DNA of 64,000 nucleotides, from NCBI GenBank assembly GCA_951406725.2, contig OX597816.1, positions 72,912,001 to 72,976,000 on the forward strand, in the 5' to 3' direction. Under the pieces are notes generated by a model. The model saw nothing but the letters and a program-made list of their open reading frames with translations, did no database searches and was not told the DNA's origin. The position numbers and the translations under genes are program-made. This stretch comes from Octopus vulgaris. Taxonomy: Eukaryota. Below, piece after piece: positions 4,372-44,756 of the stretch (positions are counted from its first letter, which is position 1; each line of letters starts with the position of its first letter).

Positions 4372-4609
4372 GTGGAACGTACAATTTCGTGGAACGTACA
4401 ATTTCGTGGAACGTACAATTTCATGGAACGTATAATTTCGTGGGACGTACAATTTCGTGGGACGTACAATTTCGTGGGACGTACAATTTCGTGAAACGTA
4501 CAATTTCGTGGGACGTACAATTTCGTCGAACGTACAATTTCGTGGGACGTACAATTTCGTGGAACGTACAATTTCGTGGGACGTACAATTTCGTGGGACG
4601 TACAATTTC
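4372..4609. repeat. Minisatellite, 14 copies of the 17-bp unit GTGG(A/G)ACGTACAATTTC
   Basis: 238 bp = 14 x 17, head-to-tail with no spacers; explains the repetitive KLYVPRNCT ORFs. Confidence 0.97.
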
Positions 4610-5329
4610 GTCAGACCGACACGATAAAATGCAGCGAACAGCTTTCCTACGGGGTTGAATATGTCTCACGCATATTTGAACTGGTAACAACTTCATATTT
4701 GTATTCATCGCTGCTTAGATCTTCTAATCAGTAAAACATTGCTGTATTTCGTGTTTTAGTCATCGGCCCACAATTTTTACTTGTCTGCATGTAATGTTGC
4801 CATATAAAAGTCACACTACTGGATGAAACTGTATTCATAAGAAGCTCCTTAACGAATATTGCCTCATTTCTAACATATACCAGCAATGGACAAGTTCAAG
4901 ATCGGTTTTATAAGAAATGAGTAAGGTCAGGGACCTTGTCATGCTACATTTAAGTTTCTATAAAAGGACCTTCGTCGATTTCGAAGATGAATGATCAGTT
5001 GTTCAATGAACTGAACTCCCCGGTTATTTGAATTAGTATGTATGTGGCTGAATATCCCTTAGTCATGTAGCTTTAACGTAGTTTTTAGGCGGAGTTAGCG
5101 AGATACCCCGTGACAAGGTCATAGTTAGACCATCTAATTATATGTTTAATCCATCCGACAGGCTTCTATATAGTTTCCGTCTTCCCACAATGTCTATGAC
5201 CACCTGATGCTATGTTAAATGACTCTCATCGATGCTACTATCAATGAGATCGAACCCGAGACTTCCTGATTGTGAAGCAGACTTCTTTAGCACTCAACCA
5301 TGCCGAGTCAACATAACAAAACAAATTAA

Positions 5330-6250: not shown

Positions 6251-7503
6251 TATATTAGGATACAAACTATGTCCTGATTATATCATGAGAATGTGTTTTA
6301 CCATTGCAACATGTTTTACCATTCCTCTTCCTTGGATGGTTCCACTAGTATGCGGACTTTTTCTTTTCCGTTTCTTTTTTTCAAAGGGAAGGGATCGCCA
6401 GCCCCTTCCCTCGATCCTTTTTCATATCTAAAGACACGAACACTGAGAATGGTACTACTCGATTTGAGTCACAGTGAGTCTAAAATTTAAAAAAAAAAGG
6501 AGGGAAAACAAAAACATAGAAAGAAAAATAGCACAAATCTGTCCTTCAGCTCCACTAGTACATGGTTTATGCCCCGCCCCCCGGAAGGAAGAAACGTAAA
6601 GTTGACCTCGATGTGATTTGAACTCAGATAACAGAATCTCAACGAATATCTGTCACTCCAATTTGCCGCTTGTAACATATTTGCAAACATGAACAGAGTT
6701 ATTGTAATGAAAATAAATGCAGCTCTCACCTTGTGTACATAAATATTCTCGTAGTCTATGTTTCTTGTATTCAACATGTGTTTGCGTGTGCGTGTGTGTG
6801 TCTGTGAGAGAGAGAGAGAGAGAGAGAGAGAGTATGAGTTTGTGTGTGTGTGTGTGTGCGCATGTAAGTATGCCTGTGCGTTCGTGTGTGAGGCCACTGA
6901 TACTGTCAGTCCTGTTCCTTGTAAATATTAATGTGTTCTATTAAAATGTGAGAAGTAATTTTATATTGAATTATTTTTATATATTTTTTATATAAGTAGT
7001 ATTCAACGCCACCTAGTCTCTGGGCTAAAATAATTGGGAGTTCTCTCCCCGCCAGCAATATATATCAAATGCAGATTGCACTGCATAACCAGCTGGAGGA
7101 AGAGTCCTCCAGGGATTAAAATGGCAGTATCGTCGGTTTTTAAGGAACAGTCGTGTTTACGTGGCGTTAAACACTATTAGTCAATATGAATACTACTTTC
7201 ATCTCTCATTGAGATTTTCGTGACAAGGTAGTTTATTTTTTACATATTACTTCACACAAGAACATATATATATATCAGAAATACTAAATTTCTAAATCTC
7301 TCGTAGAGACATGTACGGTGGTGGGGCGATAGAATGGTTGTATACTGTCAATCTAACACGAACGTGACAGTAGGAGGGGGGTACACCACCGCTGTTTAGC
7401 CCTAGGAAGCATCGACGCCTCCTGATGGCTTTGACACATTTTTTCTGTGTCCTTATATACATTTACAAAGGGGAGACAAATACCCCCAGCCGCCCGGGCT
7501 GTA

Positions 7504-7548
7504 TCTAGGGACACGTGTTTCAGGATGATTGTCCTTCGTCGGCCTAGA
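7504..7548 (-). ncRNA. Minimal type I hammerhead ribozyme motif
   Basis: Exact reverse complement of the 7902-7946 motif. Confidence 0.75.
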
Positions 7549-7901
7549 GTAGCAGACACCGGTCAGCTGACAATATCTGTCTCGACTCGTAATGTATATA
7601 TCTAAATTTCAGTGAAGTCTATTCACTGATTATCAAAATCAGAAATACTAAATTTCTAAATCTCTCGTAGAGACATGTACGGTGGTGGGGCGATAGAATG
7701 GTTGTATACTGTCAATCTAACACGAACGTGACAGTAGGGGGGGTACACCACCGCTGTTTAGCCCTAGGAAGCATCGACGCCTCCTGATGGCTTTGACACA
7801 TTTTTCCTGTGTCCTTATAATCAGTGAATAGACTTCACTGAAATTTAGATATATACATTACGAATCGAGACAGATATCGTCAGCTGACCGGTGTCTGCTA
7901 C

Positions 7902-7946
7902 TCTAGGCCGACGAAGGACAATCATCCTGAAACACGTGTCCCTAGA
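7902..7946 (+). ncRNA. Minimal type I hammerhead ribozyme motif (U4C variant core)
   Basis: Stem I TCTAGG/CCTAGA; core CCGACGA; stem II AGGA-caatca-TCCT; GAAA; palindromic stem III ACACGTGT; GUC cleavage triplet ending at 7940. Confidence 0.75.
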
Positions 7947-8109
7947 TGCAGCCCGGGCGGCTGGGGGTATTTGTCTCCCCTTCGTAAATGTATATAAGGA
8001 CACAGGAAAAATGTGTCAAAGCCATCAGGAGGCGTCGATGCTTCCTAGGGCTAAACAGCGGTGGTGTACCCCTACTGTCACGTTCGTGTTTAGATTGACA
8101 GTATACAAC

Positions 8110-8161
<52 letters not shown>

Positions 8162-20852: not shown

Positions 20853-21545
20853 CAGCAGAGCCTCGCAGTACGAGTGCCCCATTTTACGAGTAATTTACTG
20901 TACGATTCAAGACTCATGCGAATTTAGTCTTGAAATACGAAATCCGCAGTATGAGCGAGTTTCATACGAGCGATCACTAGTCGGCGCTGAGTTCGCACAC
21001 ACTCTCCCAACAGCCGCGGTCTCGGCTCGCTCAGTTCACGCGTTTGTAGCAGCATCCCTGTTGTATTATCTCCTCTGTTTTTGTTTACTTTTGTACATTT
21101 TTTTTTTGCTATCATTTTATAATAATTAGTTGTTAGCCATGGGTTCTAATAAGATAGTGTTGAGAAGAAAAAAAAAACTGACTGCGATAGAATTAAAGAA
21201 GGAAATCATTGATAAATACGACCGAAGCACATCGACGATTTGTACCATCCTGCAGAAAAAGGACGAGATCAAGGCCGTTACAACAGCAATGGGTATCTCC
21301 AGGCTCACAAAGCAACACACATCTCTCCACGAAAGGATGGAAAAAACTACTTTTCGTGTGGATCAACGAGAAGCAGGTTGCAAGGGATATGATTACGGAG
21401 ACCATCATCTGCAAGAAAGCACGAGCGCTGTATGGGGATCTCTTGAAGCAGAACCCTGGAACATCGACGGAGGTGACATCAACAGACGCATTTAAGGCCA
21501 GTCGCGGCTGGTTTGATAGTTTCAAGAAGAGGACTGGGGTATATT
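20853..21545 (+). pseudogene. pogo/Tigger-family transposon 5' part: TIR and frameshifted CENP-B-like HTH domains (ATG at 21139)
   Basis: IELKKEIIDKY..STSTICTILQKKDEI then KLLFVWINEKQ..ITETIICKKARALY..FKASRGWFDSFKKRTG; left end CAGCAGAGCCTCG. Confidence 0.88.
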
Positions 21546-22180
21546 TCAGCAGTAATCTCAAAAGGTTGTCTTCTTCAGAGAATGATTGCATAAAATACAG
21601 TTTAATGACCGCTCCTCGAAGATGACATGTTCGTGTTTCAGTCCCTCTGGAAACTTTTTTCTCAACACAGCAAAAGCATACTAATTTTATATTTATAGAC
21701 ATAAGTTACGTAAAAACATAGTTTTTGTAAATATTTATTTTCATTCGTATCTTTTATTTTCATCGTTAATTTTAATTTTTTTATTTTATTTTTTTTATTT
21801 TTTATTTGAATTAAATTATGGCTTGTACAGTAGGGTCCGGCGAACCTATTTTACATATGCATATTTGTTTAAATAATTAAAACATAGTTTATAGTATCAA
21901 ACTATGAGAAGGTGATATAGAGGCCTGATGATTGGGGCTGTATTTTAAGAATGGTTCCAGCAAAACACGGCGTGGTTAACGAACCAGGAAACGTACCACA
22001 AGAAACACGTGTAAGCCAAGTTATTAAGTAGTAAGTATTTAAATTAAAATTCTTTTACATGGTGAGATGAAGGGGCTTACTATCACTAAATGAAAATATA
22101 TATTTCCTCATTGAGAATAATTTGAACCCTTGGTATGCCGGAATTTTTATTCCCTAACAAATAAAATTAAATATATATAT

Positions 22181-30744: not shown

Positions 30745-33097
30745 CTTAGAAAGGTTTTGGCCAGTATTGACCCAGGCCATGTCTAACTTAATAGCACCAC
30801 CTGGCGACGTCTTTCAATTCAGGATTTGGGCACCGAGGCCCATTTTTGCAGAGAGTTATTGTTTGCGGAGACATATCCGGGTGTGGGTGGTTTGTCCGGG
30901 ACTGTTTGAAGGAATTTGTCCAAAGACTTCTTGAATTTTGTGTGGTCAGTTTCTGTTTTGACGTGTCCTGGTGTAATGTTGAAGAGAGCGGGTCCAATTG
31001 AAATGAAATAATTGTGCCGTATTGTCGTTATGTGACACGATTTAGATTTTTGTTGTGGACGGATGGCACGTGGTCCAAGCCTATGATGTATTTTGAAGTT
31101 GATGCCAACATCATTCGGACAGTGCTGATGGAATATTTTCCACATCATACAGATAATGTAACGTTCACGGCGTCGTTGGAGTGAATACAGTTTCAGCTTC
31201 TCTAGTCTACCCCAGTAGTCGAGGTCTGACATGCCATCTATCTGTTTTTGTGATTGACCTTTGGGGAGCTTCAATTCTCATAATATTTTGTTTTGTGTAG
31301 GGAGACCACAGTGGACAGCAGTATTCAAGGTGGGGTCGGGAAAAAGTGGAGAAGAGAAGGATAATAGTGTGGGAATCTCTCGACTGGAAGGTTCTCAGAA
31401 TCTAGGAACACATTCTGCGGGCCTTGTCAACTTTGCTGCTTATATGTGTAGCCCAGCTTACGTTGTTGTCTACTGTTACTCCCAAGTCTCTGATGTTAGA
31501 CGCCATGAGAATTTCTCCAGAAGGAAGGGAGTATGGGAGTTTCAGAGCGTCCTCCCTTCCAAAGTGGATCAGTTCGAATTTGTCTTCGTTTAGCAACATG
31601 TTGTTCTTTTCCGCCCATTGGACAACAGCCAGTAGGTCTGACTGAAGGCTTATTCGGTCATCCACGCCATTGATGACCTTCTGGAGCTTGGAATCATCAG
31701 CGAAGGTTCTGATGTTATTGTGTTTGATGGTGTCTGTAATATCATTAATGTAGATGATGAAGAGAAGTAGACCCAACACAGTGCCTTGTGGTACACCACT
31801 GCTGACTTTGGCTGGGCTGGATTTAACTCCTTCGACTACAACATGTTGGTCTCTGTTAGACAGGAAGCACTTGATTCACTGCAGCAGCTTTCCAGTGACA
31901 CCAATATTGGACAGCTTTCTCAAAAGGATTTTATTATCAACCCTGTCAAAGGCCTTGCTGAAATCAAGGTAGATGACATCAGTGTTGGAACCCTCTCCCA
32001 AGGCTCTCAAAATGTCATCAAAATGATGCAGTCAGGCAATCCCTTCCATTACGGAATCCATGCTGGTTGGAGTTCAGCATATTATGACTCTCAAGGAAGT
32101 GAGTCATACGCGATCTCAGCACTCTCTCAAATACCTTAATGATATGTGAGGTGAGTGAGATTGGACGGTAATTCACGGCAAGCGATTTGTTTCCTTTTTT
32201 GAAAACTGGGACAACAGACTGGGATAGAAGGTCTTCTGGTATATATCCAGCATTCAGTGAGTTCCGCCACAGATTGGCTAGAGGGGGTGCAAGTTGGTGT
32301 TGATACATCTTCAAGACACAAGCAGGGAACCTACTGCTGAATTATGCTTCATTTCCTTTATTGTTGCTAAGACATCAGGAACGCCAAAGGTTACGTCCGA
32401 TAAAGTGTATTGGGGAGTAACATCACTGATACAGCCCAGATCAGTCATATCAGAATTGCTGAAAACAGAGCAATATTTTTTCTGCAATATCTCTCCCATG
32501 GTTTTGGCATTGTCTTGAAGAGTACCATTTTCATCAATTAGAGGGCCAACAGTAGAACCAGTGACTCTGTATTTTTTTTTTGCAAATGAAAAGAACACTT
32601 TGGGATTGAGTTTGATCTTCTCAATGGCCCAGGCCTCTTCAGCTCTTCTCTGACTATTGATGATAGACATCATGTTGTTTTAGAGTTTATGTTTTTTAAT
32701 CTCTAGCGACGAGATGGCAGTCAGGTTGGTGTGTTGCTGTTGAAAGGCGGCGAGCTGGCAGACACGTTAGCACGCCGGGCGAAATGCTGAGCGGTATTTT
32801 GTCTGCCGTTACATTCTGAGTTCAAATTCCGCCGAGGTCGACTTTGCCTTTCATCCTTTCGGGTCGATAAATTAAGTACCAGTTACGCACTGGGGTCGAT
32901 GTAATCGACTTAATACCTATGTCTGTCCTTGTTTGTCCCCTCTATGTTCAGCCCCTTGTGGGTAATAAAGAAATAGGTATTTCAGCTTGTTGATTTTTTT
33001 GTTAATTCTTTTAATTTTCCTGATGAGAGATTTTCTATTTCTAGGGATTCGACACTTAGATTTGTTTGCAGATCTTAATGGGGTATGTTTTGCACAT
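30745..33097 (-). pseudogene. CR1/L2-group LINE, 5'-truncated ORF2 (reverse transcriptase) with frameshifts and deletions, interrupted by a SINE
   Basis: VPVFKKGNKSLAVNYRPISLTSHIIKVFER, QHGFRNGRDCLT, YLDFSKAFD, GVPQGTVLG.LLFIIYIND, FADDSKL, RDLGVTVD, RLEKLKLYSLQRRRER. Confidence 0.92.
32746..32977 (+). mobile_element. SINE family A, young full-length copy inside the LINE remnant
   Basis: Nearly identical to the reverse complement of 18694-18926. Confidence 0.9.
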
Positions 33098-42786: not shown

Positions 42787-43482
42787 CAGCAATCACTCGC
42801 CATACCGCGATTCACCTATCATGGATTCTTGTGGTTAATATATATAAATTTATATCACGGACTCCTCAGTATATCGCGGGTTTCTGCGGCCGATAGGTAT
42901 TTATATTTTTTTAGATTTTAATAATTTCTATGATAAAATAAGCATTTTCACACATAAAAAATTAATAAATTAATAAATAAAGATATAATACAGTATTGCA
43001 CTGTATAACACATTAATTAAAATATATTAAAAGAAAAACGTAAGTGTACCGTAGATGAGTAAACAAAGAATCGCACATACTGTGTGGAAAACGAAACTCG
43101 GGAGGCGAGTGTGCGGTGTAGTTTTGCATTTGCGTGTAAAGTTGTGAATTTATTTCAAGCCCCATGATGTCGCCCAAACGGTTTGCACCATCTAAGGCTT
43201 TCTACCTGACGTAGAAGAAAAATCAGTGCCAGCAACTGCCCATCGCTATGTTCCTCATCTGCAAAAAAAAAAAAAGGAGAAAGAGAGAGAGAGAGAAGAC
43301 ACGGGTTCTCCTAAGAGTGTGGGGAGAGTTCATGAAAGCTGAAATATATAAAAATAATGAAATAAATATATACAAATTATAAATAAAGAAAAGAAATATA
43401 CAGTACTGCTTCTACTTCACGGATTTTCACCTATCGCTGGAGTTCGTGGAACGTAACATTCGCGACAGTCGAGGGACTACTG
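42787..43482 (+). mobile_element. Non-autonomous pogo/Tigger-like DNA transposon
   Basis: Imperfect TIRs CAGCAATCACTCGCCATACCGCG / CGCGACAGTCGAGGGACTACTG, TA on the left, subterminal GATT(TT)CACCTATC repeats, residual MSPKR start. Confidence 0.65.
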
Positions 43483-44756
43483 AATACCATCTATTATTAA
43501 AAAAACAAAACAGACAGCTATATTTGATGGAAAATCATGATTATTATAAAGATTATAGATTTTGGTACAGGGCCAGCATGATCGAGAGCGGGTTAGTCGA
43601 TTTGTATCAGAACGATTACTCCGCCTTGGTTAATTACCCCCTCTCCAATATATTAGGAAGTTTTAAATCATCATCTGTTGTCCTCAGATGTAATTGTCTT
43701 TTGAGGGGAGGGGGTTATTGTCCATGTGGTGGGGGCGGTAAATGTCCAAGATTCAGTCGATGTAATCGACTAATACTTCGGCGAAATTTGAACCTGGAAC
43801 GAAATGCCGCTAAGCATTTGCCCAGCTTATTATCGATTCTGCTCGCTCGCCGCCTTAATCATAATTATAATGATAGGTTGAAACGTGGTAAGTGACAATG
43901 CACGAACTCTCGTGTTTTGAGTCACTCTGTAACTTCTGTCTTCTAATATTGGTTTCAGATTTCGGCACAAGACCAACAACTAGGCATGACAACTCTGGGA
44001 CCACTAACTTGGGATGATCCTAGCTCCATCAAGCAAGAGCACGAAACCAAGCTAGTCGATTGAATTGATCCCAGTGTTTGACTAGTACGTATTTAATCGA
44101 CCCCGAAAGGGCGGAGGGCTGGGTCGACATTTGTGGCGTTTGAACTCGGAACGATAAACCGGAAGAAATGCCACTTGTCAGCTTACCGCTCTCACAGGCT
44201 ACCATTAATTCTTTCAGCTATAGGCATAAGACCTGGAATTTTGCGGGTAGTGGCTAACCGATTACATCGTCCTCAGTGTTCAGCTGGTACTTATTTCATC
44301 GATCCCCGAAAGAATGAGTCCATAAATCCTCTCAATCCCGTACCTACCCTTCTGCATCCTTCCAAGGTGACGTCGAACCTCTGAAGATCTTCCCCAATTA
44401 CGTCGAGCCATCTGCTGCGTGGAATGACAGTGAAGCCCTAGCTGGATGATCTAGAGGACATATCCGTACCAGCCCCAACCCCAAATTTCAGACTTAGTGC
44501 CTAGAATAGGAAGAAAGAATTATTTTGAAATCTGTAAGATCTACTTGGTTACATTGTGAATAATTCTTTCTACTATAGGCTCAAGGCTTGAGATTTGGGG
44601 GAAGATGTTAGACGATTACATCTATCTCGGTGGTCAACTGGTTCTTAATTTATGACCCCGAAGGGATGAAAGGCATGGTCGACCTCGGTAGCATTTGAAC
44701 GTAAAGATGGATGAGAACGTAAAGATGAACTCAGAACGTAAAGACAGACAAAATGT

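Follow-up and report, generated by a model that had tools for sequence, protein, structure and literature searches.

A young, likely dead-end hammerhead retrozyme in the Octopus vulgaris genome, probably copied in trans by a Penelope-type enzyme from two priming sites

Results and Discussion

Architecture of the element

The window, i.e. the whole stretch of 64,000 nucleotides of Octopus vulgaris DNA that was analysed (assembly GCA_951406725.2, contig OX597816.1, positions 72,912,001 to 72,976,000 of the forward strand), harbors an element of 844 bases set between TA repeats. Positions within its repeat unit are given as u1-u364, numbered in the hammerhead sense and corresponding to window positions 7637 down to 7274. 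The element is composed of the following parts:

7265..7275, no strand: left (TA)n target
7274..7637, minus strand: full 364-nt unit u1-u364 of the direct arm, GC 45%, with its long 3' end (u364 at 7274) adjoining (TA)n
7274..7328, minus strand: 55-nt "tail" u310-u364, on one arm only
7638..7819, minus strand: 5'-truncated upstream tandem copy u181-u364, without hammerhead and without promoter motif
7817..7819, no strand: junction microhomology ATA, 3 nt
7817..8117, plus strand: inverted arm u5-u309, with its short 3' end (u309) adjoining (TA)22
8115..8158, no strand: right (TA)22 target

In a self-comparison of the window, 7274-7457 recurs at 7638-7819 with a period of 364 and 98.4% identity, and the reverse complement of 7329-7633 matches 7817-8117 at 96%. 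Read on the minus strand, the direct arm runs through u181-364 and then u1-364 (7819 to 7274); the inverted arm, u5-309 (7817-8117, 301 nt), lies head-to-head with it. The retrozyme-sized unit of about 364 nt, the half unit and the inversion of the original prediction are borne out by these values. What was called an inverted unit is indeed inverted but is not a full unit, as it comprises 301 nt and lacks the last 55 nt. Likewise, the element ends at 8117 (TA-ambiguous) rather than at 8115, and the TTATAA proposed as the junction does span 7815-7820, but only ATA (7817-7819) is common to both arms.

The element has no coding capacity, as had been predicted: its longest stop-free frame is 76 aa and its longest ATG ORF 56 aa. 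Lacking an ORF for reverse transcriptase (RT) and GIY-YIG, it is not an autonomous Penelope-like element. Over about 850 nt it differs from its subfamily consensus by five substitutions plus G-run indels; these few differences indicate a young copy, in line with the recent insertion suggested before. The target duplication is unreadable inside the TA repeat.

Could the inversion be an artefact of the assembly or of a chimeric read? DNA contigs from three runs reach from the left flank to a point 18-20 nt inside the element, and none bridges the inversion under a 31-letter bridging rule. On the other hand, the junction jumps from u181 to u5 without mirroring. Four substitutions private to the direct unit are absent from the inverted arm, which has others of its own and stops at the family end u309. 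Moreover, the same layout is present, with differing breakpoints, in 62 of 107 insertions of the family. We therefore regard an artefact as highly improbable.

The predicted hammerhead ribozyme

Each arm carries one hammerhead motif, and a stable fold is predicted around the copy in the inverted arm:

7902..7946, plus strand: type I hammerhead with core CCGACGA (U4C), stem II AGGA/UCCU, palindromic stem III ACACGUGU and a predicted cut 3' of C7940 (u128)
7504..7548, minus strand: second copy of the hammerhead, identical in sequence, with a predicted cut 3' of 7510
7845..8000, plus strand: predicted fold into a long rod, in which stem I is extended and the hammerhead occupies the tip

When both strands of the 64-kb window are scanned with relaxed settings, the two 45-nt motifs are the sole matches, and sequence matching confirms that they are identical and share the CCGACGA core, as originally described. 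The core is canonical at all positions except U4C, a GUC triplet is present, and the pattern predicts the same cut, 3' of C7940, that had been put forward. The CTGC/GCAG extension of stem I is unbroken in the plus copy, but in the minus copy it is interrupted by a private G>A at u136, a position that is G in 125/129 family segments. The earlier description of the hammerheads as intact is correct in that both motifs are present and identical; it has to be qualified by the U4C core and by there being one hammerhead per strand. With a single copy on each strand, no monomer or circle is excisable by two successive cleavages. The window copy is thus likely a dead-end insertion, and it would not count as active under the rule of Li et al. 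2026 (10.64898/2026.07.22.740005), which calls for two consecutive units with hammerheads.

No hammerhead is recognized by Rfam, whether the gathering score or a cut-off of E<=10 is applied; the assignment as a ribozyme is therefore based on sequence pattern, fold and covariation. The predicted fold of 7845-8000 has an energy of -70.2 kcal/mol (z -7.9), equalled by 0 of 200 shuffles, and the whole unit folded as a circle gives z values of -7 to -10. A 17-nt core pattern matches the genome exactly at 518 places (reversed control, 0), and core position U4 is occupied by C in 504 of them. The 14 matches with T at this position, one of which has no match to the unit, resemble CpG decay; selection for reversion to U4 was considered and rejected, since 14/518 is within the range of other CpG positions. 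Changes at the subfamily level within the 45-nt motif are confined to N7 and loop II (u100, u110, u111). The covariation analysis used 22 distinct motifs whose anchoring did not require pairing. Of 110 stem I cells, 100 are paired, compared to a mean of 78.9 and a maximum of 90 in 2000 shuffles, although related rows inflate this difference. The first stem I pair changes from A-U to G-C inside the C4 lineage, compensatory stem changes occur across sister families, and stem III is palindromic in nearly all of the 22 motifs. The motif is thus kept among copies, in its C4 core as well as in its covarying stems, a point on which the original prediction had made its call depend. In an automatic alignment of the hammerheads the stems were misplaced, and it was discarded; a candidate second hammerhead at u1-u50 (TTGATAA...GAAA) was rejected because no stem I adjoins its core.

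The short palindromic stem III, which needs a second copy, is also found in the dimeric type I hammerheads described in PMC4209133 and PMC3088659, and the U3:A8 variants of that group occur in sister families here. As in such ribozymes (PMC4209133), the palindrome would imply cleavage as a dimer, and from its sequence we infer that self-cleavage would be dimer-dependent and attenuated by U4C. According to PMC3088659, U4C "considerably decreases activity in vitro", yet it is sufficient for viroid infectivity. In the accessible text of that source the substitution is described from a viroid only, whereas here it is the core of almost the entire family.

These data also bear on the alternative that the hammerhead is a catalytically dead relic, retained merely as RNA structure. 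The low in vitro activity of U4C would fit a relic, as would the report that ribozyme mutants had no effect on insertion of the anole element in vitro (PMC11167929) and the observation that 5' ends are not piled up at the cut site. Against it stand the infectivity of the U4C viroid, the restriction of subfamily changes to N7 and loop II, and the replacement of A-U by G-C in the first stem I pair of a lineage whose stem III remains near-palindromic. We consider a relic unlikely, but deserving of serious attention. This alternative bears on the ribozyme alone and does not conflict with the explanation of the insertion that we favor below.

Paired ends and the insertion mechanism

A 3' 21-mer of the unit has 1869 genome matches and thus outnumbers the core, as 5' truncation would lead one to expect. 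We examined 107 distinct insertions, of which 27 came from the best full-length matches, 62 from the first-listed core matches and 18 from the first-listed 3' matches; this count does not include 13 loci that had been retrieved for their U4 variant. The arms are arranged head-to-head in 62 insertions and directly in 45, and a tail-to-tail orientation occurs in 0. Among the 47 head-to-head insertions with two defined ends, 46 combine one long end (u364; u355-364) with one short end (u309; u300-311) that is 55 nt shorter (binomial p 3e-13). The window copy is one of these 46, and the remaining 15 head-to-head insertions have one end elsewhere. In two pattern-drawn sets, not selected for full length, the pairing is found in 34/34. 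The Penelope-like inverted partial repeat that had been recognized at the locus is therefore, together with its one-sided tail, a property of the family. A preference for TA is evident from the TA repeats that adjoin 98 of 151 defined 3' ends, and duplications of 6-13 nt (upper bounds) are present at 8 of the 13 non-TA sites.

Tandem copies, also part of the original prediction, are common: 55 of 169 arms exceed one unit, with a maximum of 2.28 units, and 10 arms among the 107 insertions contain two same-strand hammerheads. The cleavage site u128 is crossed by 114/169 arms, and only 4/169 5' ends fall within u123-134. We therefore rejected the cleavage site as the element end; the ends are u309 and u364, and 5' ends are not clustered at u128. 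Rare variants are shared at 2.54 per kb between opposite arms and at 2.35 per kb between tandem units, as compared to 0.27 between different loci and 0.44 between same-haplotype loci. Because this sharing is about six-fold that of same-haplotype copies, both arms likely derive from one source RNA or locus, although gene conversion or assembly consensus could mimic it.

Analogous insertions are known from Penelope-like elements that bear an endonuclease (PMC3846280, PMC8557442, PMC11167929), which share with the present family the partial tandem, the inverted truncated copy, the tail at one end, AT-rich or (TA)n targets, duplications of about 10 bp, a hammerhead in the repeat and ends unrelated to the ribozyme cut. 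The family differs from them by the absence of an ORF, by its 55-nt tail and by its strict one-long/one-short pairing. PMC8557442 describes an inverted 5'-truncated copy with a one-sided tail of 30-40 bp. For the anole element, PMC11167929 reports that the tail is the stretch between two internal RT start sites, that both DNA strands are cut and extended, and that uncleaved RNA is the main substrate. Retrozymes have been presented as Penelope derivatives (10.64898/2026.07.22.740005).

On this basis, we think it probable that the window element is a young, likely dead-end, protein-free hammerhead retrozyme that was copied in trans by a Penelope-type enzyme in two primings, with the resulting arms joined head-to-head. 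The enzyme of a Penelope-like element would introduce a nick into each strand of a TA repeat, and two cDNAs would then be primed at two fixed internal RNA sites, u364 and u309, one per nick. An uncleaved multimer or a circle would serve as the template, and the two truncated cDNAs would be joined head-to-head via short microhomology. The original prediction had proposed copying from a circular or multimeric RNA with a template switch. Its first part agrees with the arms that cross the cleavage site and exceed one unit, which point to a template that is longer than one unit or circular; a single switch does not account for two ends that are fixed family-wide and are present once each in nearly all defined insertions.

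The latter idea, that one cDNA switches template or folds back onto itself to make the inversion, draws on overlaps of 1-5 nt at 27/46 family junctions and on the self-priming proposed for Penelope elements (PMC3846280). Moreover, the short arm lies inside the long arm in 26/46 insertions, the window copy included, a relation that fold-back could also produce and that counts to that extent against two primings. In the other 20/46, however, neither arm is contained in the other, and the longer arm is the long-end arm in 22 cases and the short-end arm in 24. Because of these uncontained arms and the fixed u364/u309 ends, an origin of the arms as two cDNAs, each primed on its own, is the better reading, and fold-back appears quite improbable. 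Two further points do not fit two primings easily: the 55-nt tail exceeds the published 30-40, and for the anole element the two strands were not seen to differ in start site in vitro (PMC11167929), in contrast to the strict pairing here. Twin priming of the L1 type was rejected, as the arms overlap in sequence by up to 300 nt, the internal ends are fixed and no poly(A) is present.

Relation to retrozymes and Penelope-like elements

The element is of a kind already known, a non-LTR retrozyme with Penelope-type insertion. With the metazoan non-LTR retrozymes (PMC7229834; 10.64898/2026.07.22.740005) it shares a unit that encodes no protein, measures 150-450 bp, has a GC content below 50% and contains one type I hammerhead, as well as tandem copies and target duplications of more than 4 bp. 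The units of the mussel retrozyme measure about 350-390 bp (PMC7229834), compared to 364 nt here. As those sources present them, metazoan retrozymes form long arrays; the present family is mostly dispersed, truncated and inverted, with at most 2.28 units in the 107 insertions sampled. It differs further by its family-wide U4C core.

Sister families have u150-364 in common at about 78% and use the same two ends, but possess different stems and cores that are either canonical CUGAnGA or U3:A8. Contigs resembling the family were found in four runs that are RNA by guess only and uninformative on expression or circles; one loose end among them led to a sister family. At least four further retrozyme families (L194-L223; L238:2300-2870; L101:744-1026; L108:5575-5820; L293-L301) have the 3' domain or the layout in common, with CUGAnGA, U3:A8 or C4 cores, and one of them is arrayed at a spacing of 362-366 bp (L294).

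Might the unit instead be a pLTR, i.e. a truncated terminal repeat, that belongs to a protein-coding Penelope-like element? Coding elements of this type, with a 781-aa RT and GIY-YIG, are abundant in the genome and have the same short and long ends in TA repeats together with hammerhead-like motifs, so the end signature by itself would suit a pLTR. The linkage to a Penelope ORF that the original prediction had envisaged did not emerge: 150 of 6136 GIY-YIG candidates were scored, and comparison of the unit with 50 GIY-YIG loci by blastn and 70 by nhmmer gave only short AT-rich matches or independent retrozyme insertions, hence no pLTR homology in these loci, the 781-aa family included. Next to the unit itself, no Penelope ORF was seen. 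The scored fraction leaves a pLTR some room. Tandem arms in which u364 joins u1 directly, up to the maximum length given above, and the arms with two same-strand hammerheads are contrary to it, as is the fact that the sole recurring upstream ORF belongs to a LINE with target duplication. A pLTR is thus improbable, and we retain an independent retrozyme copied in trans. The nhmmer matches in L101, L108 and L238 were rejected as partner homology because they are separate retrozyme insertions, and a 19-nt AT-rich antisense match to a partner was set aside as chance.

Two families of coding Penelope-like elements and one further frame were also encountered. A young family (L091-L107; 93-99% identical) has a 781-aa frame with RT, linker zinc finger and GIY-YIG; it also possesses a U3:A8 hammerhead-like motif, a second long frame upstream and a tail that measures about 38 nt by eye. 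A second family (L108:4795-4980, L233, L238) carries a CCGAAGA (U4C) core and a tail of about 80 nt by eye. A 677-aa Penelope-like frame that belongs to another type and matches GIY-YIG weakly lies near a retrozyme cluster on a small contig (C41; L248:5379-7409).

A predicted promoter and a LINE that inserts near the hammerhead

Two further features were predicted in the plus-strand arm, each with a mirror copy on the minus strand:

7820..7826, plus strand: likely snRNA-type promoter core ATCAGTG (u8-14), weak but supported by its position; mirror at 7624-7630, minus strand
7876..7892, plus strand: predicted start site (about u64-67) and LINE target site; mirror at 7558-7574, minus strand; both target sites are empty, with no LINE inserted at the window copy

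The promoter matrix was built from motifs upstream of the U1 and U2 genes of this genome. The best site of the unit, at u8, scores 7.9 bits, a value reached by 1.7e-4 of background 20-mers and below those of all 14 snRNA sites (minimum 11.7 bits); the expected site was found in only some of the sister units. An ATCAGT-type motif lies at -57 to -61 in 43 of 45 U1/U2 loci, and in the other two, both U2, the 3' end of a LINE adjoins the start site. The u8 motif lies about 59 nt before the position that matches this LINE-U2 junction. The spacing weakly suggests that transcription may start near u64-67 and that the LINE may insert at start sites. Read-through transcription could possibly give the dsRNA that had been suggested for the inverted arms; RNAs initiated at the predicted internal promoters would extend away from each other and would not pair.

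With regard to the promoter and HYPERPARASITE, the upstream sequence common to four loci led to inserts that bear ORFs and sit at u69-77 with target duplications. The 3' end of the insert retrieved 30 loci, of which three had been recognized as linked before; a strict hammerhead lies no more than 130 nt away in 16 of the 30, as compared to 2 of 984 background windows. We also inspected 20 long-ORF loci picked from the 150 listed: 11 contain full or near-full LINEs that end just before the hammerheads of several unlike families, two represent a stacked array with a piece of target, and seven have other targets. The distance from LINE to core is 32-38 nt at 28 of 53 LINE ends (background, 18/2556). 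A loose genome pattern for the junctions gave 85 matches against 59 for the control and therefore provides only a rough count; 20 of the matches are exact by eye.

ORF2 of the LINE comprises APE, RT and zf-RVT domains and ORF1 a zinc knuckle, and the closest named relative of one LINE protein is from Argonauta hians. Grouped by these domains, it resembles the Tx1 clade (PMC4494074: Tx1 into Tx1D, Keno into U2, Tx1-Mar into Mariner), which has the same APE-RT, the same zinc-knuckle ORF1 and likewise a multicopy repeat or RNA gene as target. It differs from the examples in that source in targeting a position, 32-38 nt before the hammerhead core or the U2 start, in retrozyme families of unlike sequence. 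The L1/Tx1-like LINE occurs in full-length and ORF1-only 1.5-kb forms (L244-L248, L249-L278, L291-L310), is often stacked at one site and lies at U2 start sites in L316 and L323. More distant relatives (L302, L304-L309) have other fixed-looking targets, one of which is common to L305-L307; Rfam gave no gathering-level match in 14 LINE loci with other targets.

As a tentative scheme, which we hold to be possible rather than likely, these observations could be combined into a parasite system of three tiers. Octopod retrozymes driven by snRNA-type promoters would make circles that cleave as dimers, attenuated by U4C; a Penelope enzyme dimer would copy one such RNA from two non-equivalent starts simultaneously, which would account for the strict long and short ends; and the LINE would target by the promoter machinery instead of the sequence, arrive at the start sites of unrelated retrozyme families and of U2 genes, borrow the promoter and have its 3' read-through trimmed by the hammerhead about 65 nt downstream.

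Implications

Three features of this family appear to be new within a known kind of element: a U4C core throughout, strictly paired ends and a LINE that targets by position. For cephalopods, the literature searched gave no description of the three, including the octopus repeat paper PMC13282606 at the level of a term search, and searches of openly available literature gave none of positional LINE targeting. The window locus itself is an ordinary daughter copy. The inverted repeats and the one-sided tail of Penelope elements are posed as an open question in PMC8557442, and a 364-nt substrate with two mapped ends, paired in 46/47 insertions, is small enough to put two-site priming by a dimer to the test. 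The normally harmful U4C, kept through several subfamilies with covarying stems, allows a test of selection for slow cleavage. A LINE at a fixed position in unlike retrozymes and at the U2 start would, if true, represent a promoter-guided hyperparasite.

Elsewhere in the window, a 170-aa open frame of non-repetitive composition and without Pfam match lies at 43383-43895 (plus strand). A fragment of a Tc5/pogo-like transposase DNA-binding domain (PF03221) is found at 21197-21625 (plus strand), and broken LINE reverse-transcriptase fragments (PF00078) occupy 30819-31875 (minus strand). A 17-bp minisatellite with 14 copies and 93% matches is located at 4372-4611.
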